Below are positions 30,171 through 50,880 of a stretch of 64,000 nucleotides of DNA, piece by piece; positions within the stretch are counted from its first letter, which is position 1; each line of letters starts with the position of its first letter. The position numbers and the translations under genes were made by a program. Origin of the DNA: Tidjanibacter sp. (GTDB taxonomy: Bacteria > Bacteroidota > Bacteroidia > Bacteroidales > Rikenellaceae). The notes beneath the pieces are model-generated. The model was not told where the DNA came from, did no database searches, and saw only the letters and a program-made list of their open reading frames with translations. The stretch spans positions 27,843-91,842 of the forward strand of contig JAFQNC010000026.1 of the NCBI GenBank assembly GCA_017396085.1, written 5' to 3'.

Positions 30171-30196
30171 CTCCGGGGCTTTGGGCCCTAAACTAA

Positions 30197-32089: not shown

Positions 32090-32131
32090 TTAAGGGCTTT
32101 AAGGGCTTTAAGGCCCTTAAAAAAAGACGTT
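32090..32131 (+). repeat. 42-bp direct repeat, left copy
   Basis: TTAAGGGCTTTAAGGGCTTTAAGGCCCTTAAAAAAAGACGTT, identical to 50447-50488. Confidence 0.9.
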
Positions 32132-32154
32132 AGACAACACTCATATACGAAGCA

Positions 32155-32754
32155 ATGGACAAGTCGCCACAAGAGATTAGTGCCGGCATAAGGGCCGGAG
32201 AAGAGTGGGCCTATCGTATGCTCTACGATGCCCACTACGAACTCTTGTGTCGCATTGCCTACGACTATGTCAAAGACACCTATCTGGCCGAAACAATCGT
32301 TGGCGACACCATTTTCCACATCTGGGAAAGGCGCGAAACACTCGACATACAAGGCCCCATAAGGCGTTATCTCATCAGGGCCGTGCGCAACCGTTGCTTG
32401 GACTTTCTCGCATCGCAGTATGTGCGCCGTACCATATCCGAGGGCGATGTGAACTCCTCCAACGAAGAGCATACCGACCTGCTTGACGGCGTGGAGGAAA
32501 TCAGCCCCCTTGGTATTCTGCTCGAAAGAGAGTTGGAAGACAAGGTGGTGGAAGCTGTGGAGCAGTTGCCCAAAGAGTGCCGAGCGGTGTTTGAGAAGAG
32601 CCGCTTTGAGGGGCTATCCTATCAGGAAATTGCCGATTCACTGGGCATTTCGGTCAATACCGTGAAATATCACATCAAGGCGGCTATCGCACGCATCTAC
32701 AACCACTTGGAGCGCTATCTGCTGGTGCTCGCCGTGGGTTGCATCTTTTTCTAA
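32155..32754 (+). CDS. ECF RNA polymerase sigma factor (Bacteroidetes PUL type)
   Basis: AETIVGDTIFHIWE, YLIRAVRNRCLD and SRFEGLSYQEIADSLGISVNTVKYHI; adjacent to FecR. Confidence 0.94.
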   Translation: MDKSPQEISAGIRAGEEWAYRMLYDAHYELLCRIAYDYVKDTYLAETIVGDTIFHIWERRETLDIQGPIRRYLIRAVRNRCLDFLASQYVRRTISEGDVNSSNEEHTDLLDGVEEISPLGILLERELEDKVVEAVEQLPKECRAVFEKSRFEGLSYQEIADSLGISVNTVKYHIKAAIARIYNHLERYLLVLAVGCIFF

Positions 32755-32774
32755 GAAAAAAACTCACTTTTTCA

Positions 32775-32806
32775 CTACCCTCCGAAGGAGGAATTTCGTC
32801 TAATAT
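32775..32806 (+). promoter_or_regulatory. Candidate ECF-dependent promoter for fecR
   Basis: CTACCCT-N16-GTCTAATAT; same layout as 34102-34133. Confidence 0.6.
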
Positions 32807-32830
32807 ATAAGACCGAGTCATTCACACACT

Positions 32831-33829
32831 ATGAACCTCTTTAATGACCAAATCGAAGGCCTCGTGGAGGCCTACCTGACAGACACCATCACTGCCGAAG
32901 AGTTGGCTGTGTTGAACACTTGGGTTTCAGCCAGCGCCGAGAACACTCAACTCTTTGAGCGCATTAGGGAGGTGTGGTTTTCAATGTCGGCAGCCAATCG
33001 CAACTTGGTTTTCGACTCCCACAAAGGCTATCAGAAATTCATCAAAAGGGTACACCGTGCACAGCGCAAGAGTTTGCGTAGCAAGGCGTTGCCCTTTGTT
33101 CGTTTGGCCACAGCAGCGGCTGCCGTGGTGGCACTCGTTGTGGTGGGCTACGTGGGTGGTCGCCACGAGGTGGAGTCCCGCTTTGAGCAGATTGTAACCG
33201 AGGCCCCGCTGGGAGCGACCTCGCAGGTGGTGCTGCCCGATGGCTCACAGGTGGTCCTCAATGCAGGCTCACGCATTGTCTACTCGCAAGGCTTCGGTGT
33301 GAACGACCGCAACATCAGCCTCTGTGGCGAAGGCTACTTTGAGGTGGCACGCAATGAGGATATGCCCTTTGTGGTGGAGAGCGACCATATGAGGGTGGAA
33401 GTGTTGGGCACCAAGTTCAATATGTGCGACTATGCCGAGGACCAAGAGGCTGCGGTGGCACTGGTGGAGGGCAAGGTAGACGTAACCAACCGTTACGACA
33501 ACATCCACGTGGAGATTACGCCCGACACACGTGCCGTCATTGACAACCGCACCCACTCTATGTCGGTGTCCAAAACCTCCGCCAGCGAAAACGTGCTTTG
33601 GCGTGAGGGCGTGCTCTACTTTGACGAGGAGCCTTTGGCCGACATCGCACGTGAGTTGGAGAGGTGCTACGGGGTGGACATTGCGATTGAGAACCCGCTG
33701 CTGAACGACTACAAGTTCTATGGCAAATTGCCCTCGCGACAACTCTCCATCGGGGAGGTGCTGGAGATTCTCTCCTCGGCAGGCGAGGTGGACTACTCCA
33801 TTGAGGGCCGACACATCACGCTCCTATAA
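32831..33829 (+). CDS. FecR-family anti-sigma factor
   Basis: TM helix; LPDGSQVVLNAGS, GEGYFEV, VLGTKFN and C-terminal DUF4974-like domain. Confidence 0.94.
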   Translation: MNLFNDQIEGLVEAYLTDTITAEELAVLNTWVSASAENTQLFERIREVWFSMSAANRNLVFDSHKGYQKFIKRVHRAQRKSLRSKALPFVRLATAAAAVVALVVVGYVGGRHEVESRFEQIVTEAPLGATSQVVLPDGSQVVLNAGSRIVYSQGFGVNDRNISLCGEGYFEVARNEDMPFVVESDHMRVEVLGTKFNMCDYAEDQEAAVALVEGKVDVTNRYDNIHVEITPDTRAVIDNRTHSMSVSKTSASENVLWREGVLYFDEEPLADIARELERCYGVDIAIENPLLNDYKFYGKLPSRQLSIGEVLEILSSAGEVDYSIEGRHITLL

Positions 33830-33983
33830 TCAAGTGCAGGAGCCATAACACAACAAGAGAACCTAAAGATTTATATTACAATCACAGCACTACAAAATCA
33901 ACCTAAAAAACGACATTGATAACCATACCTCAGAAAACGACAACTATTCGGAACTATTGTTAGTACCCTCATAGAGTTGGGAT

Positions 33984-34071
33984 AAAAAGAACCGAGGAAT
34001 CTCGCACATTCCCCGGTTCGCAAAAAAATCTCAACTCTATGCCCTTTGTACAGGTTTGCACAAGAAAAGAT
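33984..34071 (-). ncRNA. Predicted cis-antisense sRNA divergent from susC (boundaries approximate)
   Basis: Minus-strand -7 TATCTTTG (34077-34084); minus-strand terminator hairpin 33989-34019 followed by a U-run (33984-33988). Confidence 0.45.
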
Positions 34072-34101
34072 TTCCGCAAAGATAGGAAAAATTGCTTATT
34101 T

Positions 34102-34133
34102 CCACCCTATTGCAGAAGTCCAAAGTGCAATAT
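34102..34133 (+). promoter_or_regulatory. Candidate ECF-dependent promoter for susC
   Basis: CCACCCT-N16-GTGCAATAT. Confidence 0.6.
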
Positions 34134-34192
34134 TTATTAAGCAATTTAACTATTTCCGTCTATTAACACAAAATAATTCAATAAGTCAGTCT

Positions 34193-37100
34193 ATGAAAAG
34201 GAACTTAATTTTGCTCCTTTGGGCCCTGCTATTCACCATTGGGATGTCGGCCCAGAATAAACCCCTCTCGCTCAAACTTGATGGGGTGAGCGTGAAGAGC
34301 GCAATGGAAGCCCTCTCGGAGCAGAGTGGCTACACCTTCTTCTACAAGGTGGGCGAGGTGGACACCTCAAAGAGTGTCAGCATCAACGCCACCCGCATTG
34401 AGGAAGCCATCGGACAAATCTTGGCCGGTCAAAACGATGTGGCCTACGAAATTCAGGGCAACACTATCGTGGTGTCGAAAAAGGCCCCGCAGGCTCCAAA
34501 GAGCCAAAAGGCGCACGCATCCGGCGGTCAAGTGGAGGGTAATGTCTACGACAGTCAGAATAATCCTCTGGTGGGTGTGGTGGTGATGACCACCGATGGC
34601 GCCCACGCCGTAACCACCGACACCAAAGGCCACTTTGCCATCGCCGCCAAGAAGGACACCGTGTTGGAGTTTTCGTGTCTGGGCTATGCCACACGCACCG
34701 AAAAAGTCGGCACCCGCACCAATATGCGCATTGTGTTGGCCGATGACGTGCAGCAAATGGAGGCTGTGGTGGTTGTGGGCTATGGCACCCAAAAGAAGGT
34801 AAACCTCACCGGCTCGGTCTCTATGGTCAATAGTGAGGACCTCGAGGCGAGGCCTATCTCCAATGTGGCCAACGGTTTGCAGGGTATTCTCCCCGGCGTT
34901 ACCGTAACCAGCGCATCGGCACAGCCCGGTGAGTCCAACGCCACCATCAGGGTGAGGGGTGTGGGTACGCTCGGCAACTCCAACCCGTTGATTTTGATTG
35001 ATGGTGTGGAGGGCGACATCTCGGTCCTCAACCCCGAGGATATTGAGAGCGTGTCGGTGCTGAAGGATGCAGCCTCGGCCTCAATCTATGGTGCGAGGGG
35101 TGCAAATGGTGTGTTGCTCGTTACCACCAAAAAGCTCGGTAGTGGCGAGAAAATCCGCCCCTCGGTAACCTTCAACTCCTATGTGGGTGTGCAGACCCCC
35201 ACCCGATTGCCCGAAATGTGTGATGCCATTGAGTTTATGACCCTCGACAACGAGGCCCGTAGCAACATCGGCAACGCCATTGCGTGGCTTGACGATGCAT
35301 TCGACAAGGTGCGCACAGGCTCCGACCCCAACAACTTCGCCAACACCGACTGGCTCGGTGCGGTGCTGAAACCCAGCGCAATGCAGCAGAACTATGGTTT
35401 GAGCATCAATGGCAGTATGGGCGACAGCGGCTATATGCTCTCATACCGATTTTTCGACCAAGATGGTCTGACCGTGGGTAGCACCACAGGCGAGCAGAGG
35501 CACAACCTGCGCTACAAGATGGACACCAAGTTGCTCGACAAACTCACCCTTTCGTCAAACGTGGGCTATACCGCACGCAACATTGTGGCTCCCATCAACT
35601 CGCTCGTCAGTGGCGGTGGCGCAATCTACACCGCAATGCGTATCGCCCCCAACGCCCCCATCTACTACACCGATGGCACTTGGGCCTATGGTGGCGGTAA
35701 CACCAACCCCGTGGCCACCCTCACCGATGGCGGCTACAGCAAAACCTCGGCCGAAGAGGTGTCGGTGTTGGAGGTGCTCCGCTATGACATCAACAAGAGT
35801 TGGAATGTGAGCGCAACCTACAACCTCACATCCACCAACTCACTCCGTGATATACTCAAAAAGACCATCCGCTTCGTACACCCCGATTCGGGCCGAGTGG
35901 TGGAGGTAAACGCCCCCAATCAGGTGAAAAACATTGACGTGAGGGCACAGCAGCAGACCTTCATCTTGCAGAGCAACTTCGACTTCTCGGTGGGCAACCA
36001 CAACATCAGTGGCGTGGTGGGTATGTCGCAAGAGTGGTATGTGTATCGCTCCTTTGACGCCTCACGCAACAACCTCGTAACCGAATTCAACCCCACCATC
36101 AACCTCGGCGATGCCTCAACAATGAGCAACAACGCCTCGGCCAAACAGTGGGCCATTCGCTCCGGTTTCGGACGTTTGAGTTACAACTACGACGAGAGGT
36201 ACCTCTTTGAGATGAATATGCGCTACGACCTCTCCTCGCGTTTCCACCGCGACAATCGTGCGGGCTTGTTCCCCTCGTTTTCGGCAGGTTGGAGGGTGAG
36301 CGAAGAGGATTTTATGGCCTCCACCGAGGAGTGGCTCGACAACCTCAAATTGAGGGCTTCGTGGGGTAGGCTCGGCAACCAGTATGTTGGCTCGTCAAAC
36401 ACCCCCTACCTCTAACCTGACCGCCTACACCGATGACATCTCGCTCATCGGTGGCGGTGCCACCACGGGCTACACCCAATCGGTGCTCTCCAACCCCTTG
36501 CTCACTTGGGAAACCATCACGATGACCGATTTCGGCTTTGACCTCACAATGTTCAAAAACCGTTTCTCGCTCTCGTTTGACTGGTTCACCAAAGACACCG
36601 ATGGTATTCTGCTCAAACTCAACTACCCCGCACAGATTGGTGCAACCCCCTCCGAGGAGAACGCCGGCAAGATGAACAACACCGGTTGGGAGATTGATAT
36701 GGCTTGGAGGGACAAGGTTGGCGAAGTGCGCTACGGCTTTGGCTTCAACCTCTCGGATGTGAAGAACAAAATCACCGACTTGGCAGGCAACGCTCCCGAT
36801 TTGAGTGGCGACCAAGTGAGGGTTGTGGGCCTTCCCATTGACGCCTTCTATGGCTATGAGGCTATCGGTCTGATGACTCCCGAGGATTTCAAAATCTACG
36901 ACCCGAATACCGGTCAGGCTGCCCTGCCCAACATTCCCATTGTGTTGGGTAACGCCTACCAGCCCGGCGACATCAAATATAGGGACATCAGCGGCCCCAA
37001 TGGTAAACCCGATGGCCGCATCACCCCCGAGTATGACAAGAAGTACATCGGTAGCAACATCCCCCGCTACACCTACAGTTTCCGTGGCGATGTTGCGTGG

Positions 37101-37550
37101 AGAGGCTTCGACTTCAGTTTCAACCTCCAAGGTGTGGGTAAGTGTGATGGCTACCTCAAAGGCTCGGCACGCCACGCCTTGCAGGATATGGCCGCCTATC
37201 CACAAAAAGTACACTTGGAGCGTTACCACTACCTGAACAACCCCAATCCCAACACGACTTACCCTCGTTTGACCTACAACACCAAGTTTAATCAGGAGAC
37301 CTTCTCGACCTTCTGGTTGGAAGATGCCTCCTACCTCCGTTTGAAGAACATCCAGCTCGGCTACACCCTGCCCTCGGCCATCACCAAGAAGGCCAAAGTG
37401 GACAAGTGCCGCATCTACATCTCGGCCGACAACCTGCTGACCGTGAGCGATTTCTTCTACGCCTACGACCCCGAGACCCCCGTGTCGAGCGGTGGCTACT
37501 ACCCGCAAGTTAAGACCTGTGTGCTCGGTGTTAGCATCACCTTCCGATAG
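34193..37550 (+). pseudogene. susC: SusC-family TonB-dependent transducer (STN domain) split by a frameshift near 36402-36415
   Basis: N-part 34193-36415 (STN, plug, barrel to RASWGRLGNQYVGSSNTPYL-stop); the barrel continues in the +1 frame (SNLTAY...NPLLTWET...GVSITFR) to 37550. Confidence 0.8.
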
Positions 37551-37616
37551 AGGGAGCGACCCTACCATAGGACAACAACGTGTTGAACGAACAAACAAGA
37601 CAAAAGAGAGAGAGTT

Positions 37617-39308
37617 ATGAAAAAGATTATATACGGTTTTCTGATTGCCACAGCGGCACTGATGGTTGGTTGCAATGACGACTTTCTGGAGCGTCCGCAA
37701 TTTGACCAAATCACCGATGAGAACTTCTGGCAAAACGAGGCCCACCTCCAGAGTGTGGCCAACACCTTCACCACCTGTATGCAGGGTGCCTACTGGCTGA
37801 ACATCACAGAGATTATGGCCGACTTTGCACCTTGGGCCGTAACCACCGCCTTCCGCACCATCGGTGGCGGCAACTATGCCACCAACATCGGCAACCTCAA
37901 CTCCATCTGGGTGAGGGCCTACAATGGTATTGGCACCACCAACTACTTCCTCGCCAACTACAACAGGGCAGTCAATGTGAAGAAAGAAATCAGAGAACGC
38001 TATGCCGCCGAGGCATACTTCTACCGTGCCTACAACTATTGGATTCTGACCAACTACTTCGGCGATGTACCCTACATCACCGAGGTGCAAAACGTGGAGT
38101 CGCCCGATGTCTATCGTGGCAGGGACAAACGCGAGGTGGTGATTGACAACATCACCAAAGACCTCGAGGAGCACTACAAGGCTCTGCCTGAGTACATCCC
38201 CGCAGCAAGCACCGAGTTCGGCCGTGTGTCGCAAGCCGCTGCACTGGTGTTGCTCTCGCGCATCTACCTCTACAATGGTCGCTATGCCGATGCCGTAAAC
38301 GCCTGCGAGAGGGCGATGCAAAACCCCTACCACGAACTCTACACCACCGGCAAGCCCAATGAGGACTACTACAATCTGTTCACCTACACCGGACGTGCCT
38401 CACGTGTGGCAGCCAACAAGGAGACCATCCTCGCCTACGTCTACAACTACGACCTCGGCGAGAAGGCACGCACCTCCCACAACGTGTCGCGTTCCAACTG
38501 GGTACCGGGCGACTATGCTCGTTGGGTCCCCACAAAGAAGGCCATAGAACTCTACCTCACTGCCGATGGCCAGATTTGGGACCCCAAGCAGTGCAACTCC
38601 TATGAGGAGATTTTCCAAAACCGAGACCCCCGTATGTGTCAGACCATCCTCGCTCCCGGCACTCCTTGGACCGGAGGCCCCGATGGCGACATCACCAGCA
38701 CCGACAAGAGCATCTACCGCTACCCGCTGCTCATTAACGACAAGAGCGGTGCGATGACCTACACGGGCTACTATATGCGCAAGTATGTGGAGCCCTCCAC
38801 GGTGAAATATGTGAGCCACGATGACAACGACATCGTGATGATGCGCTACGCCGAGGTGCTTCTCAACTACGCCGAGGCCAAAGAGTTGGACGGCAAACTC
38901 ACCCAGCACGACCTCGACATCAGCATCAACCTCCTGCGTCAGAGGGTTGGTATGGTACCTATGGAACTCGGTAAGTTGCCCGCAGGCAGCGACATCCGCA
39001 CCGAGATTCGCCGTGAGCGCAACGTGGAACTCTTCTACGAAGGCCACCGCTACTTCGACATCATCCGTTGGAGAGAGGGCGAGACTTTGGGTGAGGACCT
39101 TGTGGGCGTAAACCGCAGGTGGCTCGACCAATCGAGGCTAAAAGTGGACCTGAGCACACTTGCGTGGGTTACCATTGATGGCGAGCAGTATCTGTTGTTG
39201 GAGACCGGTCGTACCTTCGACCCCAACAAGCACTACCTGCTCTCAATCCCCTTCGCCCAAATGCAACTAAACCCCAATCTGAAACCCAACAATCCGGGTT
39301 GGAACTAA
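37617..39308 (+). CDS. susD: SusD-family lipoprotein
   Basis: Lipobox LMVGC-NDDFLER; AEAYFYRAYNY, FGDVP, MRYAEVLLNYAEA and RRERNVELFYEGHRYFDIIRW. Confidence 0.96.
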   Translation: MKKIIYGFLIATAALMVGCNDDFLERPQFDQITDENFWQNEAHLQSVANTFTTCMQGAYWLNITEIMADFAPWAVTTAFRTIGGGNYATNIGNLNSIWVRAYNGIGTTNYFLANYNRAVNVKKEIRERYAAEAYFYRAYNYWILTNYFGDVPYITEVQNVESPDVYRGRDKREVVIDNITKDLEEHYKALPEYIPAASTEFGRVSQAAALVLLSRIYLYNGRYADAVNACERAMQNPYHELYTTGKPNEDYYNLFTYTGRASRVAANKETILAYVYNYDLGEKARTSHNVSRSNWVPGDYARWVPTKKAIELYLTADGQIWDPKQCNSYEEIFQNRDPRMCQTILAPGTPWTGGPDGDITSTDKSIYRYPLLINDKSGAMTYTGYYMRKYVEPSTVKYVSHDDNDIVMMRYAEVLLNYAEAKELDGKLTQHDLDISINLLRQRVGMVPMELGKLPAGSDIRTEIRRERNVELFYEGHRYFDIIRWREGETLGEDLVGVNRRWLDQSRLKVDLSTLAWVTIDGEQYLLLETGRTFDPNKHYLLSIPFAQMQLNPNLKPNNPGWN

Positions 39309-39324
39309 CAAGACCTTGACTTCT

Positions 39325-40152
39325 ATGATGAAAAACACACATAAGAAGATTGTGCTCACGTTGGGACTGGTGCTGTGTACGCTGCTGTGTGCATCGCAGC
39401 GTGTGCAAGCCCAAGAGGGAACAATAAGGCTCCGAGTGATGTCGATGAACATCAAAGAGGGAGGCCGGTATTGCGGTTTTCTCTCCGCTCCCTTTGCCGA
39501 GTTGATTAACCAGCACAAGCCCGATGTGGTGTGTTTGCAGGAGGTGGACCACCGCACCACTCGCAACGGAGGGCGTGATTGGTTACACGAGGTGGCAGCC
39601 GCCACGGGTATGATGCCCTATTTCTGTCAATCAATGACCTATCAGGGTGGCGGTTTCGGCACGGCACTATTGTGTCGCTACCCCTTCCACCGACTGACCA
39701 AGATTATCACCACGCTCGAAGGCGCACGAGAGCCGAGGTCCACGGGGTGGCTCTACTTTGCCCTGCCCGAGGGTGGCATTGTGAGGGTGGCCTCCACCCA
39801 CCTTGCGCTGGAGAGTTCGCAGATGACCATTCGCCACTTGGCCGATGTAAACTCCAAACTCTTTGCCGAGGACGAGAGCACTCCCACACTCCTCGTGGGC
39901 GACTTCAATGCCGCCGAGGGTAGCGACCCCATCTCCTATGCGGCCAATCGTTGGGTGGACCTCGGCAGGGGCTACGGCAACACCTACCCTTCCAGCCGTG
40001 AGGACATCACCTATGCTCCGTGTAGGCTCGACTACGTGATGGCCTACCCCAAGACGGGGTGGAGTGTGGTGAGTTATGAGATACTCGACTGCCCCGAACT
40101 CTCCGACCACTGCTTCATCGTGGCCGAGCTGACCTACACACCTAATAACTAA
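39325..40152 (+). CDS. Secreted endonuclease/exonuclease/phosphatase (EEP) family phosphoesterase
   Basis: Signal peptide; intact SMN, LQEVD, STHL, GDFN, LDYV and SDH motifs. Confidence 0.9.
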   Translation: MMKNTHKKIVLTLGLVLCTLLCASQRVQAQEGTIRLRVMSMNIKEGGRYCGFLSAPFAELINQHKPDVVCLQEVDHRTTRNGGRDWLHEVAAATGMMPYFCQSMTYQGGGFGTALLCRYPFHRLTKIITTLEGAREPRSTGWLYFALPEGGIVRVASTHLALESSQMTIRHLADVNSKLFAEDESTPTLLVGDFNAAEGSDPISYAANRWVDLGRGYGNTYPSSREDITYAPCRLDYVMAYPKTGWSVVSYEILDCPELSDHCFIVAELTYTPNN

Positions 40153-40174
40153 AAAAGGAACAACAATAGAGAGT

Positions 40175-41005
40175 ATGACAACACGCACAACAATACAGTT
40201 TCTTTGCAGAGTGTGGCCAATGTTACTGCTCGTGGCATTGGCCACCGCCTGCGGTCCCACTCCCGACAATGGGGGCGGTGGCGGAGGTAACGAAAATGGT
40301 GGTGGCGACTATGTTGCTCCCGAGGTGCCCGAAACGCCCGTGGCAACCAACCTCTTCCGTGTGGACTACTTCACCACGTTGGAGAGCGAGGGTGGTTATT
40401 TTGTGGGCAGAGATGCGGGTGTGGCCTCGCAGTTCATCTCCACTCAGGAGGCCCCGCGCTCGGTGGTCTATATGTTTGACCGATGCGACTTCACGGTAGG
40501 TAGCAAGCAGCCCGCAGTGCAGATGGCACTCGACAACAAAGCCTTCTGCTACTTCCTCCAAACGGGCCCCACCGAGGAGCAGACCACCCGTGGCACCGCC
40601 GCAGTGAGTCGCTATCAGACCTCCTTTGTGGTGGGTGTCTACGAAGAGGGCCTGCACCTGTCGGGCGTAACATTCAACGTGGGCCTCTCCAAACCCACCG
40701 CAATCACCCTCTACACGGCTCGCTTCGACACCACCGAGCAGGTGGCCAAGGCTGTGGAGCACTTTGGGGTGGATTGGCAGAACAATGGTGTGCTCGTGGG
40801 CTCGGTGGCCGTGGAGCAGAAGGAGGCCATAGAGAAGTGGTTGGCGGCCAACTTTGAGGGCTATCGTGTGGCCTTTGCAGGCAGCGAGGGTACCCCCTAC
40901 GATGTGGTGGTACTCTGTCCGGCCCTGATGGTGTGTCGCTCCATTGAGCCACTCAAGACCATCAACCTCACCTATTGGAAAGTAACGATGGAAAAATTTT
41001 TCTAA
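40175..41005 (+). CDS. Lipoprotein, probable catalytically inactive EEP-fold protein
   Basis: Lipobox LATAC; by-eye colinear similarity to the flanking EEPs, with all catalytic residues replaced. Confidence 0.6.
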   Translation: MTTRTTIQFLCRVWPMLLLVALATACGPTPDNGGGGGGNENGGGDYVAPEVPETPVATNLFRVDYFTTLESEGGYFVGRDAGVASQFISTQEAPRSVVYMFDRCDFTVGSKQPAVQMALDNKAFCYFLQTGPTEEQTTRGTAAVSRYQTSFVVGVYEEGLHLSGVTFNVGLSKPTAITLYTARFDTTEQVAKAVEHFGVDWQNNGVLVGSVAVEQKEAIEKWLAANFEGYRVAFAGSEGTPYDVVVLCPALMVCRSIEPLKTINLTYWKVTMEKFF

Positions 41006-41020
41006 CCCGAAAGATAACCT

Positions 41021-41788: not shown

Positions 41789-41882
41789 CAACCGAACAAA
41801 CCAAACAATAATAAACCAAACAACAACAAACCAAACAATTAACTTTTTTATTAACCTTTTTTTTCAAAAACATTTTTACGCT

Positions 41883-43211
41883 ATGAAAAAAACATTATTT
41901 GCAATTGCAATGCTGGCAGTAGCACTGGTAGCTTGCGAGAAAGGTCCCGGCGAAGGCGCAGAAAAACTCGATGCAACCATCGCTTTGGCAGAGGGTGTTG
42001 AGGCCACTTTGGCCGAGGGTGTAGCCTATGGTAGCCCCCTTGCCATCAAAGGTACCGTAACCACCACCGCACCCCTCACCGAGGTTGTGCTGACCGGTGT
42101 AGCCAAAAATGGCAACGCCTATGCCGCCAAAGGTAGCGCACAGACTCTCGAGCAGGATGGTAACGAGGTGGACGTGCTGTGGTTTGCCGACACCAAAGAG
42201 GCAACCCACTTGGAGGTTAAACTCGTAGCCGGCAACAAGGCTGCTTCTTTCTACTACGCACTTGGCGCAGTTGAGGGCGAGTTGGCCGGTAGTGCTTGGG
42301 CAATGAGTACTGTTGCTCTCTACGCCGACAACAAAGTTGCTCACAACGTAAATGACAATGTTACTTATCCCGAAGAGAACACCGGTGCAGGTAGCGACAC
42401 CAAATCGTTCTTCTCGATGCACGGTGTTGAAATCAATGGTAAGGTTGAGCACATTCTCTCGCTCAACGAACTCTTGACTGTTGATGGCAAAAATGCTTCG
42501 ATGTGCTGGGTAAACTGCTTGGAGAAAACCGATGCTCTGCCCAAAGAGGGTAAAGAGGGTTTGGACGCTCTCACTTTCATTGGTGGCCAAAGGGGTTACA
42601 TGTTCACCGGTATGAAGAAGACTTCCTTGGGTGGTGGTACCACAGGTCGTCAGTGCGACACTCAGAAGTATGGTGAGCACCAGATTGTTGATGCAAACAT
42701 TGACGTAAACTTCACCTTCAAAGCCATCAACGGCTCGTGGATTGGTGAGAAATACAAAGACGAGGAATACAAATTCATCGATGCAATCTGGCTCAGCATC
42801 AACGACGAACTCACCACCGAAGCCGACAAGATGAGGGCATTCTACCAGTTGAGCAAGATTCAGCAGAAACTTGACAACGCCACTCTCGGTGTTGAGGAAG
42901 AGCCTACCAGCCTTGGTGGTAAGACCTATCTGCGTCGTTGGACAAACGCTGGTCAGACATCCGCAACTGCTCCTACCGAGGGTTTCCGTGCAGGCGACTA
43001 CATCATCATCCGTAGCGAGCGCACCGTAGGCGAGAACACTGTTTACTACTATGGTCTTATTCAGGTTCTTCAACTCGTTGACGATAGCCAGATGTTTACC
43101 TTGCCATCTACCAAGGGTGATTGGATGTGCATTGAACATAGTGCCGCCTATGAGCTCTTTATGAAGCCCAACTACTTCGCTGTTAAATCGCAGATGGAGA
43201 TTGCCAAATAA
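41883..43211 (+). CDS. Surface lipoprotein of unknown function (putative glycan-binding protein)
   Basis: Lipobox LVAC-EK; no family recognised; last gene before a terminator. Confidence 0.75.
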   Translation: MKKTLFAIAMLAVALVACEKGPGEGAEKLDATIALAEGVEATLAEGVAYGSPLAIKGTVTTTAPLTEVVLTGVAKNGNAYAAKGSAQTLEQDGNEVDVLWFADTKEATHLEVKLVAGNKAASFYYALGAVEGELAGSAWAMSTVALYADNKVAHNVNDNVTYPEENTGAGSDTKSFFSMHGVEINGKVEHILSLNELLTVDGKNASMCWVNCLEKTDALPKEGKEGLDALTFIGGQRGYMFTGMKKTSLGGGTTGRQCDTQKYGEHQIVDANIDVNFTFKAINGSWIGEKYKDEEYKFIDAIWLSINDELTTEADKMRAFYQLSKIQQKLDNATLGVEEEPTSLGGKTYLRRWTNAGQTSATAPTEGFRAGDYIIIRSERTVGENTVYYYGLIQVLQLVDDSQMFTLPSTKGDWMCIEHSAAYELFMKPNYFAVKSQMEIAK

Positions 43212-43231
43212 GCAAACCCTAAAACAAACAA

Positions 43232-43281
43232 TTGCCGATGCGGGGAAATTCTATGTGTGGCCCCGCATCGGCAACTTTTTC
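43232..43281 (+). terminator. Intrinsic terminator after the PUL lipoprotein
   Basis: TTGCCGATGCGGGG...CCCCGCATCGGCAA followed by CTTTTTT. Confidence 0.8.
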
Positions 43282-43326
43282 TCAACCACACACACAAGAC
43301 CAACACACTAAAAACAACAACAAATA

Positions 43327-45492
43327 ATGATGAAACTGCTGCAACGATTTTGGATATTTATGGTGGTGTGTGCCACCTTGGTAGGATGTAGTGCCCAACA
43401 GAAGGAGCGCACCCAACAGATTGCTGCGGCACGTGGGGTGATTGAGCGCACACTCGGCGCAGAGCCACAAAACCTCACACTCAAACTTACCGCCCCCACA
43501 GCAGAGGGGCTGGATACCTACAACATCTCGGCCACGGGCGGACACCTCACCATAGAGGGCTCCTCGCCCACGGCTTTGTGCTACGCTTTCAACCACTATC
43601 TCCACCGCGCCTGCCACTCGCAGGTGGTCTGGGGCGGCAAGCACCTGTGTGTGCCCACCGAGTGGCCCGACTACAGCGAAAGCGGCACCTCGCCCTATGA
43701 GTTGCGCTACTTCCTGAACGTGTGCACCTTTGGCTACACCGCCCCCTACTGGGATTGGGAGCGTTGGGAGCAGGAACTCGACTGGATGGCTCTCCACGGA
43801 GTGAACTTCCCCTTGGCAAGCGTGGCCAGCGAGGCCATCGCAAGGCGTGTGTGGGTGCGACTCGGACTCACCCCCGAGGAGGCCGATGCCTTCTTCACGG
43901 GCGCAGCACACCTGCCTTGGCACCGTATGGGCAACCTCAACTCCTTTGACGGCCCCCTCACCGAGGAGTGGCACGAAGGACAAATAGAACTCCAGCACAA
44001 AATACTCGCCCGTATGCGAGAACTCGGTATGAACCCCGTGGCCCCTGCCTTTGCGGGTTTTGTGCCCCCAACATTCATTGAGAAAAACCCCGACATCACC
44101 TACAACCAACTCCTCTGGGGCGGCTTCGACAAGTCGTTCAACGCAGTGGTGTTGGCCCCCAACTCTCCTTGGTTCAGCAAGATTGGACAGCTCTTTGTGG
44201 AGGAGTGGGAGGCCGAGTTTGGGGATGCAACATACTACCTCTCCGATAGTTTCAACGAGATGCGCTTGCCCGTGGAGCCCGGCGACACCGAGGGTAAGCA
44301 CGCCCTGTTGGCCGACTATGGCGAGGCCATCTACAACTCCATCATCGCCGGCGACCCCGATGCCGTGTGGGTAACCCAAGGCTGGACTTTCGGCTACCAG
44401 CACGACTTCTGGGACAAGGAGAGTATGCAGGCCCTGTTGAGCCGTGTACCCGATGATAGGATGATTATCATCGACCTCGGTTGCGACTACCCCAAGTGGG
44501 TGTGGAAAACCGAGCAGACGTGGAAGGTACAAGAGGGTTTCTACGGCAAAAAGTGGATATTCAGCTATGTGCCCAACTTCGGTGGCAAGGTGTTGCCCAC
44601 GGGCGAACTCCAAATGTATGCCACCTCTTCGGCCGAGGCTCTCGCTTCGCCCGCCAAGGGCAACCTCGTAGGTTTCGGCTCGGCCCCCGAGGGCTTGGAG
44701 AACAACGAGGTAGTCTATGAGTTGTTGGCCGATATGGGCTGGACCTCCGAGGCCATCGACCTTGACGAGTGGGTGGAGAACTACTGCACCGCACGCTACG
44801 GAGCCTACAACGAAAACATCAAGGCCGCTTGGGATGCCTTCCGTGGGAGTGTCTACTCCTCGCTCTACTCCTATCCGAGGTTTACGTGGCAGACCGTGGT
44901 GCCCGACCAGCGCCGCAAGAGTGCCCACGACATCAACGACCTCTTTGGCGAGGGTGTTGTACACCTGCTGGCCGCAGCCGAGGAGTGTGGAGGCTCGCCC
45001 CTCTATGTGAACGATGTGGTGGAGATGAGCGCAATGTGGCTCTCCGAGGTGGCCGACCGACACTACGAAAAGGCCCTCTCGCTCAAAGCACGTGGCCACA
45101 AGCGTGCCGCAAAGGCCGAACTCACACAAACCATCGAAATACTCCGCGGTGTAGACGCCCTGTTGGCCCACCACCCCAACCACAGGCTTGAAAATTGGGT
45201 AACCTTGGCCCGCAAGTCGGCCGAGAGTGTGGAGGCCCAAAATGCTGCCGAGGCCAACGCCAAGAGGCTGATTGCAACTTGGGGCGGTTGGCAGGAGGAC
45301 TATGCTGCAAGGCTGTGGAGCGATATGGTGGCCCGCTACTACATCCCTCGTCTGGAAATCTACTTTGCCCACGGAGCCGCCGCCACCGACAAGTGGGAAG
45401 AGGAGTGGATTGGCACCCCGATGACGGAGTTTGCCACCGCAGAGGGCAACCCCGTGGAGCTGGCAAAAAGCCTCGTGGAGCACTATAAGTAG
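43327..45492 (+). CDS. GH89 alpha-N-acetylglucosaminidase (lipoprotein)
   Basis: RYFLNVCTFGY, WERWEQELDWMALHGVN, WHRMGN, DSFNEM and PEGLENN motifs. Confidence 0.95.
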   Translation: MMKLLQRFWIFMVVCATLVGCSAQQKERTQQIAAARGVIERTLGAEPQNLTLKLTAPTAEGLDTYNISATGGHLTIEGSSPTALCYAFNHYLHRACHSQVVWGGKHLCVPTEWPDYSESGTSPYELRYFLNVCTFGYTAPYWDWERWEQELDWMALHGVNFPLASVASEAIARRVWVRLGLTPEEADAFFTGAAHLPWHRMGNLNSFDGPLTEEWHEGQIELQHKILARMRELGMNPVAPAFAGFVPPTFIEKNPDITYNQLLWGGFDKSFNAVVLAPNSPWFSKIGQLFVEEWEAEFGDATYYLSDSFNEMRLPVEPGDTEGKHALLADYGEAIYNSIIAGDPDAVWVTQGWTFGYQHDFWDKESMQALLSRVPDDRMIIIDLGCDYPKWVWKTEQTWKVQEGFYGKKWIFSYVPNFGGKVLPTGELQMYATSSAEALASPAKGNLVGFGSAPEGLENNEVVYELLADMGWTSEAIDLDEWVENYCTARYGAYNENIKAAWDAFRGSVYSSLYSYPRFTWQTVVPDQRRKSAHDINDLFGEGVVHLLAAAEECGGSPLYVNDVVEMSAMWLSEVADRHYEKALSLKARGHKRAAKAELTQTIEILRGVDALLAHHPNHRLENWVTLARKSAESVEAQNAAEANAKRLIATWGGWQEDYAARLWSDMVARYYIPRLEIYFAHGAAATDKWEEEWIGTPMTEFATAEGNPVELAKSLVEHYK

Positions 45493-45534
45493 CGCACGCC
45501 CAGACAAACGAACAAAAAAAACGAACAAACAGAT

Positions 45535-47823
45535 ATGACTCAAACCGCAAAAAGCCTATTCCGATTGTTGTGGGTGTGGGTGGGAGCACTCCTTGTTGGG
45601 TGCGCCCCCGATGCCACCCAAACCACCTTCTCGCTCCGTGAGCAGACCGAGGCTGCCGAAGCACTCGTGGAACGTGTAACCGATGGCCGTGCCGATGATT
45701 TCAGGGTGGTAATTACCCAAAAGCAGGTCGATGGCAAAGACTACTTCGCCCTCTATGCCGACCCTCAGCAGCAGGGTGTGGTGGTGCTCGAGGGTAGCGA
45801 TGGAGTGTGTGTGGCAAGTGCGCTCAACCACTACCTGCAAGAGTGGTGCGGTTGCCACATCAGTTGGTGTGGCTCCAGCGTGGAGTTGCCCGAAAGGCTC
45901 CCCCTGCCGCAAGGTAAAACCATCAAAACAAGCCCCTACAAGTATCGCTACTGCTTCAACTACTGCACCTTCAACTACACTATGAGTTGGTGGGACAAGG
46001 AGCGTTGGCAGTGGGAAATTGACTTTATGGCACTCAACGGCATCAATATGCCCCTTGCCGTAACGGGCCAAAACTCCGTGTGGCAGCGGGTCTATCGGTC
46101 GCTCGGCTTCACGGACAAAGAGTTGGAGGGCTTCTTCAGCGGCCCCGCCTACTTCAACTGGTTTTGGATGGGCAATCTGGACGGTTGGGGCGGTCCGCTG
46201 CCGCAGAGTTTCTTCCGCAAGCACGAGGCACTCCAAAAATACATCCTCCGCAGCGAGCGAGCACTCGGTATGAAGCCCGTGTTGCCCGCCTTCACAGGCC
46301 ACGTACCGCCCTCGTTTGAGCAGAAGTTCCCCGATGTGAGGGTACGCAAGACCTCGTGGGTGAACTTCCCCGAGGTTGCTGTGCTGGACCCCGAGGAGGA
46401 GATGTTCGACCGCATTGGCGAGATGTTCATCAGGGAGCAAGCCGCACTCTATGGCACCAACCACCTCTACTCGGCCGACACCTTCAACGAAAATGACCCC
46501 CCAAGCACCGACTCGGCCTACTTGGCAGGTATGAGTCGCAAGGTGTTTGAGTCGATGAGGGCTGCCGACAGCGAGGCCGTGTGGGTGATGCAGGGGTGGC
46601 TGTTCCACCACTCCGATGACTTCTGGGGCGAGCCCGAAATAAAAGCCCTGCTGGGTGCGGTGCCCGATGATGGTATGATTATTCTCGACCTTTGGAGCGA
46701 GCGTTTCCCCGTATGGCAGCGCACCGAAGCCTACTATGGCAAACCTTGGATATGGTGTATGTTGCACAACTTCGGCCAAAACATAACCCTCTCCGGCAAC
46801 TCCGCACGTGTAGCACAAGGCCCCGCAAGCGCACTCGCCTCGCCCAAGTCGGGCAAGATGTGTGGCATTGGACTCACTCCCGAGGGCATTGAACACAACC
46901 CGATGATGTTCGCTATGATGTTGGAAAACGTGTGGCGAGAGGAGCCCATAGAGGTGGGCGACTTTGTGGCCGACTATCTGGAGGAGAGGTATGGCAGTCG
47001 CAACGAGCAGGCCGAGCAAGCGTGGGGCATCATCGCCGAGAGTGTCTACAACAACGATGTGAGCAACGGAGGCCCCGAGTCCATCATCACCGGCAGGCCC
47101 AACTTCAAGATGAACCCCGGAGGCACCACCAACGTCAAACTCCACTACGACCAAATGGAGTTGGCCACAGCGTGGGACCTGCTGATGGAGTGTGCCGAGG
47201 AGTTTGAGGAGAGCGAGGGCTACCGCTACGACCTTGTGGACATCACTCGTCAGGTGATGGCCAACCACGCCACCGTGTTGCAACAAGCGTGTGCCGAGGC
47301 CTACAAAAGTGGCGACATTGAGGCCTTCGATGGCGCAGCAAACCAATTTATTTCCTATCTTTGGGACTTTGAAGAACTACTCTCCTCACGAGAGGAGTTG
47401 TTGCTCGGCAGGTGGCTGGAAGCAGCCAAAGCGATGGGTACCAACGCCGCCGAGCGAGGCCTCTATGAGCAAAACGCCCGCAACCTGCTCACCACTTGGG
47501 GCAACAAGGATTGCCGCATCAGGGACTATGCCTGCCGTCAGTGGTCGGGAATGGTCGGCGGGTTCTACATCCCCCGCTGGGAGCGATTCTTCGCAAGCGT
47601 GCGTGAGGCTATGAGCAAGGGAGTGGAGTTTGACCAAAAACTCTTTGACGAGCAGAGCAAAGAGTGGGAATGGGAGTGGACCTTCGGCAAGGAGTGCTAC
47701 CCCACCACTCCACAGACCGATGAGATTGAGGTGGCACGCAAAATGCACTCCAAATATAGAAGCCAGTTGGAGCCCTTGCCCTATGTGGTCGCTCCCTCGG
47801 CCAAGAAGATTATTGAGAGTTAG
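45535..47823 (+). CDS. Second GH89 alpha-N-acetylglucosaminidase (lipoprotein)
   Basis: RYCFNYCTFNY, WEIDFMALNGIN, WFWMGNL, DTFNE, HNFGQN, PEGIEHN and DYACRQWSG motifs. Confidence 0.95.
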   Translation: MTQTAKSLFRLLWVWVGALLVGCAPDATQTTFSLREQTEAAEALVERVTDGRADDFRVVITQKQVDGKDYFALYADPQQQGVVVLEGSDGVCVASALNHYLQEWCGCHISWCGSSVELPERLPLPQGKTIKTSPYKYRYCFNYCTFNYTMSWWDKERWQWEIDFMALNGINMPLAVTGQNSVWQRVYRSLGFTDKELEGFFSGPAYFNWFWMGNLDGWGGPLPQSFFRKHEALQKYILRSERALGMKPVLPAFTGHVPPSFEQKFPDVRVRKTSWVNFPEVAVLDPEEEMFDRIGEMFIREQAALYGTNHLYSADTFNENDPPSTDSAYLAGMSRKVFESMRAADSEAVWVMQGWLFHHSDDFWGEPEIKALLGAVPDDGMIILDLWSERFPVWQRTEAYYGKPWIWCMLHNFGQNITLSGNSARVAQGPASALASPKSGKMCGIGLTPEGIEHNPMMFAMMLENVWREEPIEVGDFVADYLEERYGSRNEQAEQAWGIIAESVYNNDVSNGGPESIITGRPNFKMNPGGTTNVKLHYDQMELATAWDLLMECAEEFEESEGYRYDLVDITRQVMANHATVLQQACAEAYKSGDIEAFDGAANQFISYLWDFEELLSSREELLLGRWLEAAKAMGTNAAERGLYEQNARNLLTTWGNKDCRIRDYACRQWSGMVGGFYIPRWERFFASVREAMSKGVEFDQKLFDEQSKEWEWEWTFGKECYPTTPQTDEIEVARKMHSKYRSQLEPLPYVVAPSAKKIIES

Positions 47824-47859
47824 GAACATAGGTTTTTACAGCCACCGACACACAAAAGT

Positions 47860-49020
47860 ATGAAAAAGATAACCATAGCAGTGGACTCCTTCAAGGGCTC
47901 CCTCTCCTCCGCAGAGGTGGCCGAGGCAGTGGCGCAGGGCATAGAGGCCGTGTTGCCCCATTGCGAAGTGTGCAAGGTGAGCATAGCCGATGGTGGCGAA
48001 GGCACAGCCGAAGCACTCGTGGAGAGCCTCGGTGGGGAGTGGGTGCAGATGGTGGCCGGCGACCCTTTGGGCAGGCCCATTGGGGTGCGCTATGGAGTGA
48101 TTGAGGAGGGGCGATGTGCCGTGGTGGAGATGGCCACAGCAAGCGGACTTCCCCTGCTCACTCCCGAGGAGCGCAACCCACTGCTCACCTCCACCATTGG
48201 CACCGGAGAGATGATTGCCAACGCCATAGGGCGAGGGTGTCGCAAGTTCCTCGTGGCCATTGGCGGAAGTGCCACCAACGACTGCGGAATGGGTATGCTC
48301 CACGCCTTAGGCTACCGCTTTGTGGATGCTCAGGGCGAGGTCCTACAACCTTGTGGTGAGGCCTTGGTGCAAATTGACCACATTGACGACACTCTTGTAA
48401 GCCCTCTGCTCCGAGAGTGTGAGTTTGTGGTGGCCTGCGATGTTACCAACCCACTCTATGGACCCAACGGAGCCGCCCACATCTTTGCACCCCAAAAGGG
48501 AGCAACCCCACAGATGGTGGAGCAGTTGGACCTCGGACTGCGCAACTTTGCACGCACCGTGAGGGCCTACAACGGCTGCGAGGTGGACTTCGTGGAGGGC
48601 GCAGGAGCCGCCGGAGGACTCGGTGCAGGCTTCGTGGGAGTGTTGGATGCCAAGTTGCAGAGGGGCATTGATATGGTTATGGAGGCGTTGCACTTTGAGG
48701 AAAGGCTCCTCGGTAGCGACCTCGTCATCACCGGCGAGGGGTGCATCGACTACCAGACCGTGATGGGCAAAGCCCCCAGCGGAGTGTTGCACGCCGCCAC
48801 CCGTCAGGGAATTCCCGTGGTGGCCATTGGCGGAGGTGTGAGGTGGTGTGAGGCCCTCGAAAAAAGTGGGTTTGCCGTCATCGTTGCCGCCACCCCCGAG
48901 GGTGTGGAGTTGCAGGAGGCTATGCGCCCCGAAGTGGCAAAAAGGAACGTGAGGCTCGCCACCGAGCGCATAGTGGAGCAGTGGGTGGCCACACGCACAC
49001 AAAGAAAAGTAGAACAATAA
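47860..49020 (+). CDS. glxK: Glycerate kinase (GlxK/GarK family)
   Basis: DSFKGSL, ADGGEGT, EMATASGL, GGSATND, GAAGGLG and TGEG motifs. Confidence 0.96.
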   Translation: MKKITIAVDSFKGSLSSAEVAEAVAQGIEAVLPHCEVCKVSIADGGEGTAEALVESLGGEWVQMVAGDPLGRPIGVRYGVIEEGRCAVVEMATASGLPLLTPEERNPLLTSTIGTGEMIANAIGRGCRKFLVAIGGSATNDCGMGMLHALGYRFVDAQGEVLQPCGEALVQIDHIDDTLVSPLLRECEFVVACDVTNPLYGPNGAAHIFAPQKGATPQMVEQLDLGLRNFARTVRAYNGCEVDFVEGAGAAGGLGAGFVGVLDAKLQRGIDMVMEALHFEERLLGSDLVITGEGCIDYQTVMGKAPSGVLHAATRQGIPVVAIGGGVRWCEALEKSGFAVIVAATPEGVELQEAMRPEVAKRNVRLATERIVEQWVATRTQRKVEQ

Positions 49021-49069
49021 ACAGCGAGGGGACTCACCCCTCTTTCCGACCTAACATTATTTTCGGTTT

Positions 49070-50329
49070 ATGATGATGAGTGCTATTGGAGCATTGGTGG
49101 GCTTGGTGTTGTCCATCGTGCTGATTGTGCGCAAACTATCGCCCGTCTACAGCCTTTTGTTGGGCGCACTTGTGGGCGGTCTGCTTGGCGGACTCGGCAT
49201 TGAGGCCACCGCCACCACAATGGTGAGCGGAGTGAAAGACATCACCCCCGCCATAGTGCGTATTTTGGCCGCAGGTGTGCTCTCGGGTGTGCTAATCAAG
49301 AGTGGCGCCGCCGAGAGCATATCTCACACTATTGTGGAAAAACTCGGCCGCAAGCAGGTCTACCTCGCACTGGCCCTCTCGGTGATGTTGCTCACCGCCG
49401 TGGGCGTGTTCGTTGATGTGGCCGTAATCACCGTGGCCCCCGTGGCCATAATGATTGGGCGCAAGTTGGGAGCCTCAAGGTTCAAGATTTTGCTCGCAAT
49501 GATTGGTGGCGGCAAGTGTGGCAACATCATCTCGCCCAACCCCAACACCATCATCGCAGCCGAAAATATGGAAGCACCGCTCTCCTCGGTGATGTTCGCA
49601 GGCCTCGTGCCCGCCATCATCGGACTCCTCGTTACGGTCTACGTCATCATCCCCCTGATGCCCAACAGCGACCTCTACACCCCCACCTCGGACAAGGAAG
49701 AGGATGGCAGCGGAACAAAGGCACTCCCCTCATTTTGGGCCAGCGTGGCAGGTCCTCTGGTTGCCATCGCACTGCTCGCCCTGCGACCCCTTGCAGGGGT
49801 AGCGATTGACCCTCTGGTGGCTCTACCCGTGGGCGGAATTGTGGGCATTGCAACCACCCGCACGTGGAACAAGGCCGGCGAGAGCATAAGTTTCGGATTG
49901 GAGAAGATGTCGGTGGTGGCGGTGTTGCTCGTGGGCACGGGTGCCATAGCCGGCATAATCAAGGCCTCCTCGCTCACCGACCTGCTCATCGGAGTGATGG
50001 GCAGTGGCGAGGGCGGCAGGGTGTTGCTGGCTCCGCTGGCAGGTGCGATAATGTCGGCCGCCACAGCCTCAACTACCGCAGGAGCCACCGTGGCTTCGGC
50101 CTCCTTTGGACAGACCATTCTCGCCGCAGGCATACCGGCAGTGTGGGGCGCAGCAATGATAAATGCAGGTGCCACGGTGCTGGACCACCTGCCCCACGGC
50201 TCGTTCTTCCACGCCACCGGCGGCTCGGTGGAGATGAGCATAAAACAACGCCTGCGCCTTATCCCCTACGAATCGCTCGTGGGCCTTGTGCTGGCCACCT
50301 GTTCCACCCTCGCATACCTCTTGAGTTGA
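49070..50329 (+). CDS. GntP-family sugar-acid permease (probable glycerate importer)
   Basis: Multi-TM protein with GGGKCGNIISPNPNTI and DHLPHGSFFHATGG; directly downstream of glxK. Confidence 0.85.
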   Translation: MMMSAIGALVGLVLSIVLIVRKLSPVYSLLLGALVGGLLGGLGIEATATTMVSGVKDITPAIVRILAAGVLSGVLIKSGAAESISHTIVEKLGRKQVYLALALSVMLLTAVGVFVDVAVITVAPVAIMIGRKLGASRFKILLAMIGGGKCGNIISPNPNTIIAAENMEAPLSSVMFAGLVPAIIGLLVTVYVIIPLMPNSDLYTPTSDKEEDGSGTKALPSFWASVAGPLVAIALLALRPLAGVAIDPLVALPVGGIVGIATTRTWNKAGESISFGLEKMSVVAVLLVGTGAIAGIIKASSLTDLLIGVMGSGEGGRVLLAPLAGAIMSAATASTTAGATVASASFGQTILAAGIPAVWGAAMINAGATVLDHLPHGSFFHATGGSVEMSIKQRLRLIPYESLVGLVLATCSTLAYLLS

Positions 50330-50339
50330 GAACAAGGGG

Positions 50340-50880
50340 AATTCAGAATTCAGAATTCAGAATTCAAAATTGTCCCCCTCTAAGTTAGAGGGGGTGCCCG
50401 AAGGGCGGGGGCGTCTGTGAAAGGGCAGAAAGGGCAGAAAGGGACTTTAAGGGCTTTAAGGGCTTTAAGGCCCTTAAAAAAAGACGTTGGAGGTTGGACA
50501 AAAAAATGCAGAGAGCGGAGAGAATTGAAAATGGAAAATTGAAAAAGTTGCGAGTAAGCGAGGGCAGAGGGTGCTTGCACACTTTGCCGAGCGAGAGCAA
50601 CTAAAAGCCACCAAAGGTGGGTTAATTTTGGTGTGCCTTCTGCACGGGTATTAAAAAAGATACCCAAGACGCAATCAGTGGCTTCGCCGCAGAAAAGAGC
50701 GGTAGATGCCAACCGCCTGCCTCACGGCAGTCGTGGCAAGACAGGGCCATAGGCCGTTTTGTGTTTTTGGGTGGTGGGGTTATCTGACGTTTGAAAGCGG
50801 TAAAAATGCAGAGAGCGAGGCAAATGCAAGGCGCACGAGAAAGCGGGCCCGCAGTTTGCTTGTGCAAATGAGGAGCCCGC
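50340..50880. repeat. Composite intergenic repeat cluster between convergent gntP and cysS
   Basis: (AATTCAG)x3, B 50372-50417, 9-mers, H 50549-50599, inverted D 50644-50665, C 50691-50742. Confidence 0.85.
50447..50488 (+). repeat. 42-bp direct repeat, right copy
   Basis: Identical to 32090-32131. Confidence 0.9.

Follow-up and report, generated by a model that had tools for sequence, protein, structure and literature searches.

A perfect 42-bp direct repeat around a GH89 polysaccharide utilization locus of Tidjanibacter sp. and the intergenic repeat family to which it belongs

The genome of Tidjanibacter sp., a ruminant-gut Bacteroidales species, contains a polysaccharide utilization locus (PUL) with two GH89 (NAGLU) genes that lies between a yhaM-like gene and cysS and is bracketed by a perfect 42-bp direct repeat. 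We analyzed this locus in a stretch of 64,000 nt, hereafter the window, which corresponds to C17:27843–91842 (contig JAFQNC010000026.1) of the assembly GCA_017396085.1 (2,020,692 bp in 40 contigs, 95% complete; referred to here as G000). A first-pass annotation, made from the letters of the window, had proposed that the PUL is an accessory cassette gained or lost by recombination between the two repeats; if a PUL could indeed pop in and out of a chromosome without an integrase, gut Bacteroidales would have a simple route to gain or lose glycan degradation. We find it probable, from a comparison with related species and contigs of the same species, that the 42-mer pair is a late, species-specific overlay of mosaic simple-sequence repeats that are ubiquitous at operon boundaries in this genome, and that the PUL is an old resident block that was moved by ordinary rearrangement.

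The two copies of the 42-mer (TTAAGGGCTTTAAGGGCTTTAAGGCCCTTAAAAAAAGACGTT) have a spacing of 18,357 bp. The left copy is separated by 23 bp from the ATG (32155) of the first PUL gene, which encodes a sigma factor, and the right copy starts 117 bp past the stop codon of the last one, gntP (50329). Beyond the 42 bp, the modules flanking the two copies differ, and the identity stops abruptly at either end. Both the perfect match and its position relative to these genes had been described correctly in the first-pass annotation. The whole G000 assembly contains the 42-mer twice, at the two PUL flanks, and a search of the whole window allowing up to three mismatches returned no further match (0 expected from 100 shuffles). 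Each copy is composed of TTAAGGGCT twice, the variant TTAAGGCCC, and then TTAAAAAAAGACGTT, which amounts to a tandem array with 3.2 repeats of a 9-bp unit (TTAAGGGCT) that ends in a hairpin and A7GACGTT.

Position of the PUL and its junctions in related species

We searched 40 relatives with the YhaM, CysS, and GH89 proteins and then fetched the loci. Orthologs of yhaM occur in 20 species of the genus, and the relatives discussed below carry the species codes G002, G004, G010, G011, G014, G015, and G019. In G010, cysS (C43, 8224–9684, + strand) and yhaM (9794–11080, − strand) are convergent with a 125-bp spacer between them, and this contig is colinear with positions 12200–59655 of the window (~47 kb), the sole difference being the 18.9-kb PUL. 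The empty yhaM–cysS site that the first-pass annotation had suggested looking for was thus found. The single copy of the 42-mer that it had anticipated at such a site is missing: the G010 spacer contains a bidirectional terminator hairpin of the ordinary type, along with a small number of unrelated heptamers, and it has no stretch of 10 bases or more in common with either junction spacer of G000.

G010 and G004 carry the whole block from sigma to gntP at another site, with 75–84% nucleotide identity. This site lies between homologs of G000 C28:19367 onward and of C9:78308–81889, and its neighbors in G010 are housekeeping genes (amylases, GHMP kinase, SufE, and SecA). No mobility genes (integrase, transposase, insertion sequence [IS] end, or tRNA) were found beside the PUL at this alternative site in G010, and its junctions there are repeat-free in both species. 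A reciprocal empty site in G000 at the corresponding location was considered and rejected, as the flanks have other neighbors and no repeats and lie on different G000 contigs, so that no simple reciprocal event can be reconstructed.

In G019, yhaM and the genes for sigma, FecR, and SusC are contiguous (80% nucleotide identity) and the PUL occupies the same site as in G000. The G019 yhaM–sigma spacer contains no 9-mer array, no 42-mer, and no A7, and only GACGTTAGAC next to the ATG is common to the spacers of the two species. The longest direct match between the PUL flanks is 6 bp in G019 and 6–7 bp over G019, G010, and G004, compared with 42 bp in G000. Because G019 shares the PUL site without the arrays and the flanks elsewhere share at most 7 bp, the arrays are later than the placement of the PUL; and since the PUL had long been at yhaM when they appeared at its ends, its arrival cannot have left the 42-bp identity as a scar. 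The G019 assembly is fragmented, and its contigs end in repeats. On its contigs C129 (1–1366, locus L034) and C150 (L033), the abhydrolase gene found at 55852–56911 of the window follows the end of gntP in inverted orientation, which suggests that the cysS–TMEM260–abhydrolase segment is inverted beside the PUL in this species.

The position of the PUL follows the phylogeny. In a YhaM tree, G000 and G019 together are sister to G004 and G010, and the four are joined with 100/99 support, so that a single relocation, on either branch, is enough to explain it. The PUL would have come to lie between yhaM and cysS before the split of G000 and G019, or would have left that site in the lineage of G004 and G010, presumably through chromosomal rearrangement of the ordinary kind, gene order being heavily shuffled in this genus. 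Both junction spacers would have received the 9-mer arrays only afterwards, in the lineage of G000, and expansion or copying between spacers is the likely route by which the arrays spread. The extent of shuffling can be seen from the two anchor genes themselves, which are separated by 7.7 kb in G015 (C29, locus L035) and, in G014 (L049–L051, C14:2000–47000), by a 38-kb mosaic of segments found on seven different contigs in G000. Throughout the genus, genes have been reshuffled as operon-scale blocks of 1–5 kb, and cassette-like behavior is therefore not peculiar to the PUL.

Nucleotide identity to relatives is 75–84% in the PUL and 80–90% in its flanks, and the GC content is 55.8% and 54.3–54.7%, respectively. 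Because the divergence matches that of the flanks and the GC content equals theirs, we regard the PUL as old and resident, and we rejected its acquisition as a horizontally transferred island, its composition being not atypical and its divergence in step with the flanks. The gene order of the block is shared by G019, G004, G010, G011, and G002, with the part from SusC to gntP intact in the last two. One part of the accessory-cassette proposal stands, as the block acts as a single unit that is placed differently in different species and an empty yhaM–cysS site exists in G010; the other part, the repeat mechanism, is not supported.

Look-up of exact proteins yielded 15 same-species contigs for YhaM and 11 for CysS. 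All 11 of the long contigs with an exact YhaM or CysS protein carry the PUL, and no PUL-less variant was seen among them. The junction spacers that are readable (L036, L037, and L041) are the same as in the window, with the left 42-mer unchanged in L036 and L037 and the right one in L041. Three short Logan contigs stop inside the 42-mer, which is expected because the repeat is longer than the assembler's word length. Strain L037 (99.8% identical) has one ~177-bp unit fewer in the neighboring spacer upstream of yhaM, where the window has three in tandem (table 1), so repeat units do slip or recombine over short distances in this species.

Taken as the substrate by which the PUL was gained or lost at the yhaM–cysS site, the 42-bp repeats have several features that such a substrate should have: the copies are perfect, direct, and restricted to these flanks, G010 has an empty site, no integrase is present, and one 177-bp repeat unit has been deleted or duplicated over a short range within the species. 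We nevertheless judge this explanation, the one favored in the first-pass annotation, very unlikely, given that the empty site has neither the module nor a match of 10 bases or more to the G000 junctions, that G019 has the same insertion without the repeat and the junctions at the other site are repeat-free, that the PUL is as diverged as its flanks, so that its placement predates the arrays, that 11 of 11 long same-species contigs retain it, and that the 42-mers belong to a genome-wide family in a genome where such brackets are common. What the pair could do in the future is a separate matter. Shen and Huang reportedly found in 1986 a minimum of ~25 bp for RecA-dependent recombination in Escherichia coli; because 42 bp lies above it, the pair could serve as a RecA substrate, and deletion between the 42-mers as a rare, RecA-dependent loss of the PUL is possible.

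An accessory block would also be expected to have direct repeats at its two ends if these were attachment (att) sites, or the target-site duplication, of an integrative or transposable element carrying the PUL. The first-pass annotation had stated that the block lacks its own integrase, and we agree: Pfam searches of all 13 open reading frames (ORFs) between 32155 and 50329 revealed no integrase or transposase, and a tRNA scan of the window found none. With no integrase, transposase, IS end, or tRNA here or at the G010 site, an empty site without the sequence, a length far exceeding that of known target duplications, and parts of the repeat dispersed genome-wide in both orientations, such an element is hardly credible. 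An att-bounded integrative element was rejected as a candidate for the same locus, because neither a recombinase nor an empty site with a single copy was found; the repeats at both ends are present in G000 and missing in G019, G010, and G004. Where a genome is rich in repeats, finding a perfect one on both sides of an operon is no evidence of mobility, and the orthologous junctions in relatives should be checked.

The repeat family to which the 42-mer belongs

The tail of the 42-mer (AAAAAAAGACGTT) occurs nowhere else in the window, as the first-pass annotation had noted; in the whole genome, there are 19 copies, each behind a TTAAGGSCY-type 9-mer array and usually with GAAAGGGCA arrays before and AGACGTT heptamers after it. 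The repeat family has a fixed order of parts, or "grammar": (GAATTCA)n, a hairpin, (GAAAGGGCA)n, (TTAAGGGCT)n, A7GACGTT, and (AGACGTT)n. A 24-mer core of the array has 26 copies in the genome, five of which lie within 29.7–50.5 kb of the window, three of these at 29775, 29952, and 30128. Tandem Repeats Finder (TRF) detected 53 arrays of one main 9-mer and 30 of the other (AAAGCCCTT/AAGGCCCTT), so that the assembly has at least 83 in all, along with over 200 arrays of the A/T-rich heptamers AAAATTG, AAAATTC, and AATTCTC. Repeated 28-mers cover 1,289 intervals in the genome, and 16-mers with at least three copies cover 3.3% of the genome, 16% of the non-coding DNA, and 1% of the coding DNA. Hairpin modules and arrays are present in 20–30% of the spacers of 100 bp or more, a count that is approximate because the genome-wide gene map was made with a greedy ORF heuristic and no gene caller. 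A mosaic repeat system that covers 3.3% of a genome deserves study of its own.

In the window, repeat-bearing spacers lie at 19.9, 26.6, 29.9, 32.1, 50.6, 55.7, 58.4, and 59.9 kb, and the cover of dispersed repeats in the spacers inside the PUL is zero. The yhaM–sigma spacer is covered to 52% by 16-mers with at least three genome copies. The mosaic around the right 42-mer consists of four GAATTCA units, a hairpin module, three GAAAGGGCA units, a TTAAGGGCT array, A7GACGTT, and further modules, and its parts at 50373–50418, 50520–50627, and 50802–50925 are multi-copy in G000, G004, G010, and G019. These three modules are 93–100% identical across G004, G010, and G019, compared with 78–90% for orthologous genes, and G019 has at least six module copies that are identical over 46 bp. 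That the modules are more alike between species than the genes are suggests either selection on them or recent spread.

The 24-mer array is present in 10 of the 47 species of the genus and absent from the three closest ones (G019, G004, and G010). Across the GTDB species genomes, the 20-mer GGCCCTTAAAAAAAGACGTT gave one chance match (Litorimonas) and one match in a metagenome-assembled genome (MAG) of the same genus. This MAG, named Tidjanibacter sp. RGIG9095 (water deer rectum; 83% identical to G000 C11), has the same A7GACGTT and array module (L043, 6700–6790) at the spacer orthologous to C11:51248, so some module copies are old and positionally conserved. Rfam searches of the whole window and of the right-hand spacer found no match, and the 42-mer has no match among the JGI metagenome contigs, a set in which the species is not represented.

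Against this background, we asked how unusual the bracket is. There are 47–48 direct exact repeats of at least 42 bp on single contigs of G000, and 22 of them are spaced 2–40 kb apart and bracket gene blocks likewise. The tail-bearing copies form 171 pairs, of which the PUL pair has the longest shared stretch (42 bp); the next one, with its members on two different contigs, has 41 bp. The bracket is far beyond random sequence yet only marginally unusual within this genome, and an identity of 42 bp marks the upper end of what is normal for the family without exceeding it. The genome-wide count of the 42-mer, which the first-pass annotation had put forward as a check, has two sides, namely only two exact copies, but a family that is common (19 tails) in a genome with 22 direct repeats of at least 42 bp spaced 2–40 kb. 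Because repeats fill the boundaries of transcription units, any two repeat-bearing spacers bracket whole operons; and because the spacers inside the PUL are short and repeat-free, the nearest repeat-bearing spacers are necessarily the two ends of the PUL.

Several observations weigh against regarding the pair as a mere late overlay on an ordinarily rearranged block. No place other than the two PUL flanks has the 42-mer as such. In addition, the two family members that match best are neighbors, which would be the case for ~1.6% of random pairs, and direct repeats of at least 42 bp spaced 2–20 kb number 14, compared with ~7 expected from random placement. The outgroups G011 and G002, which could have polarized the move, carry the PUL in yet other contexts. 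Finally, every synteny break relative to G010 and G004 between 12.2 and 64 kb of the window falls in a repeat-bearing spacer of G000, and repeats and rearrangement may be linked. Three other repeat-bearing spacers in this part of the window are colinear with G010 and G004, and the sample behind the pattern is small and confounded, as repeats and breakpoints both favor operon boundaries.

The excess of direct repeats at 2–20 kb, about twice the expectation, makes some local copying between neighboring spacers likely. That the 42-bp identity itself arose in this way, by gene conversion or template switching between the two spacers and with no effect on the mobility of the PUL, is a tentative possibility, which is compatible with the late overlay that we favor. 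It is in line with the best family pair being a neighboring one and with the sharp end of the identity on both sides, but 41 bp are identical in a pair that is unlinked, the very small vocabulary of units makes long shared strings easy to come by, and the pairs visible in the first-pass annotation were limited to one window, which is a selection effect.

We also considered the modules as functional punctuation at the ends of transcription units, either as hairpins with an insulating or terminator-like action or as places where a protein or an RNA-binding factor attaches, with the pair marking the start and the end of the PUL unit. The modules stand at operon boundaries and never inside the PUL, and the longer ones are better conserved between species than genes, as described earlier. 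The units of the 42-mer pair with each other (TTAAGGGC/GCCCTTAA) and form a 13-bp hairpin with A7 behind it, for which RNA folding gives −16.1 kcal/mol (z = −2.9), and the right-hand mosaic folds with z = −4.05. However, since A7 and no T run stands behind the hairpin, neither strand has a canonical terminator here, and scans for terminator and promoter consensus sequences at both 42-mers gave no match. The elements show no bias in direction relative to the genes (same 16, opposite 15), G019, G004, and G010 have no arrays at the orthologous junctions, no Rfam family matches, and copy number differs between strains. In 9 of 33 occurrences, A6–7GACGTT(AGACGTT)n tails end 18–48 nt upstream of a start codon (e.g., window 32119–32154, C19:7471, and C22:18320, 19522, and 20954), a placement that would agree with punctuation and that is also seen for TAACTGA heptamers (PMC4679880). 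On balance, a role of this kind for the pair is doubtful.

A more far-reaching possibility is that the mosaic repeats promote the shuffling at operon scale, that the yhaM–cysS spacer is a recurrent breakpoint, and that the 42-bp pair is a still-usable substrate for the next event. The spacer is empty in G010, holds the PUL in G000 and G019, contains other genes in G015 and G014, and has its synteny broken in G004. We consider this combination unlikely.

Comparison with known repeat systems

Intergenic long simple-sequence repeats include the short tandemly repeated repetitive (STRR) sequences of cyanobacteria. G-rich heptamer repeats between genes have been described in Xanthomonas and Nostoc (PMC4692102); Beggiatoaceae, Cyanobacteria, and five Bacteroidetes have TAACTGA direct repeats, which lie a short way before start codons (PMC4679880). 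The family described here shares with these repeats tandem units of 7–9 bp in spacers, dozens to hundreds of arrays per genome that are often near start codons, a patchy distribution among relatives, fast turnover, and no known mobilizing enzyme. G000 has many arrays with units of 6–9 bp, concentrated in non-coding DNA at the coverage given earlier, and turnover is indicated both by the patchy presence of the 24-mer array and by the difference in unit number within the species. In contrast to heptamer repeats, varied arrays and hairpins are chained here in a fixed order into mosaics of up to ~600 bp, and the 42-mer is dominated by a 9-mer unit that makes up one half of a palindrome (TTAAGGGC/GCCCTTAA). 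Judged by this comparison, the family behaves like the known intergenic heptamer and long simple-sequence repeats.

Repetitive extragenic palindromic (REP) elements and bacterial interspersed mosaic elements (BIMEs) of Proteobacteria are associated with REP-associated tyrosine transposases (RAYTs) (PMC2817692). Like these, the family consists of high-copy palindromic elements between genes that form mosaics at operon ends, and REP elements and BIMEs are known substrates for occasional duplication or deletion. Mosaics with palindromes are found in G000, whereas a search for RAYT (Y1 transposase, PF01797) gave no match there and was positive in 6 of 14 control genomes; a conserved REP head motif is also lacking, and tandem arrays of short units dominate in place of alternating REP palindromes. 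The resemblance to REP/BIME mosaics is one of placement, without a RAYT.

Dispersed short repeats can themselves be substrates of homologous recombination, as in the TRIP1 repeats of E. coli, where it leads to deletion or rearrangement (PMC10888264). The PUL pair is similar in that direct repeats of a few tens of bases surround a dispensable block and are, in principle, RecA substrates; it differs in that no such product was found, the only repeat-mediated change within the species being that of one 177-bp unit. Accessory PULs and genomic islands of Bacteroides are moved by integrative conjugative elements or are flanked by att repeats. The PUL resembles them in being present in some species, at differing chromosomal sites, and with an empty site in a relative, and it differs from them in having no integrase, tRNA target, or mobility genes, in its native composition and a divergence equal to that of its flanks, and in direct repeats that are absent from the empty and the orthologous occupied sites.

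Gene content and coordinates

The PUL comprises, in this order, genes for an extracytoplasmic function (ECF) sigma factor, a FecR anti-sigma factor, SusC, SusD, an EEP protein, an unassigned protein, a second EEP protein, another unassigned protein, two GH89 proteins, a glycerate kinase, and a GntP-family permease; two of the genes have no Pfam match. Pfam and NCBIfam agree with the labels that the first-pass annotation had given to the block and its anchors. The label "cysteine desulfidase" for the yhaM-like gene is a prediction from its match to Pfam PF03313. Coordinates are listed in table 1.

Table 1. Positions in the window of the PUL, its anchor genes, the two repeat copies, and the surrounding spacers
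Feature	Positions	Strand	Support or content
GH89 PUL block, sigma to gntP	32155..50329	+	Pfam, NCBIfam
SDH_alpha-family gene (YhaM/UPF0597-like), left anchor	30731..32023	+	PF03313, E = 2.5e-65
cysS (cysteinyl-tRNA synthetase), right anchor	50924..52387	-	PF01406, E = 4.7e-107
Left copy of the 42-mer TTAAGGGCTTTAAGGGCTTTAAGGCCCTTAAAAAAAGACGTT	32090..32131	+	exact match
Right copy of the 42-mer TTAAGGGCTTTAAGGGCTTTAAGGCCCTTAAAAAAAGACGTT	50447..50488	+	exact match
yhaM–sigma spacer, 131 bp	32024..32154	+	CCAGAAGGC x2, 42-mer, AGAC, 19 more bases, sigma ATG
gntP–cysS spacer, 594 bp, dispersed-module mosaic	50330..50923	+	no Rfam family
Neighboring spacer, three ~177-bp tandem units	29583..30196	+	each with TTAAGGGCT array (29775, 29952, 30128)

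The genes for glycerate kinase and the GntP-family permease (47860–50329 of the window) stay with the GH89 genes in all five other block-bearing species (G019, G004, G010, G011, and G002) and, because of this attachment, are part of the conserved unit. The SusC gene is split into two ORFs by a 2-bp frameshift. The 2-bp deletion lies at 36400–36415 of the window, where G000 reads CTCTAACC and L037 reads CTCTCAAACC; SusC is intact in L037, with a length of 1119 aa, and the same-species contig L036 has the same frameshift as the window.

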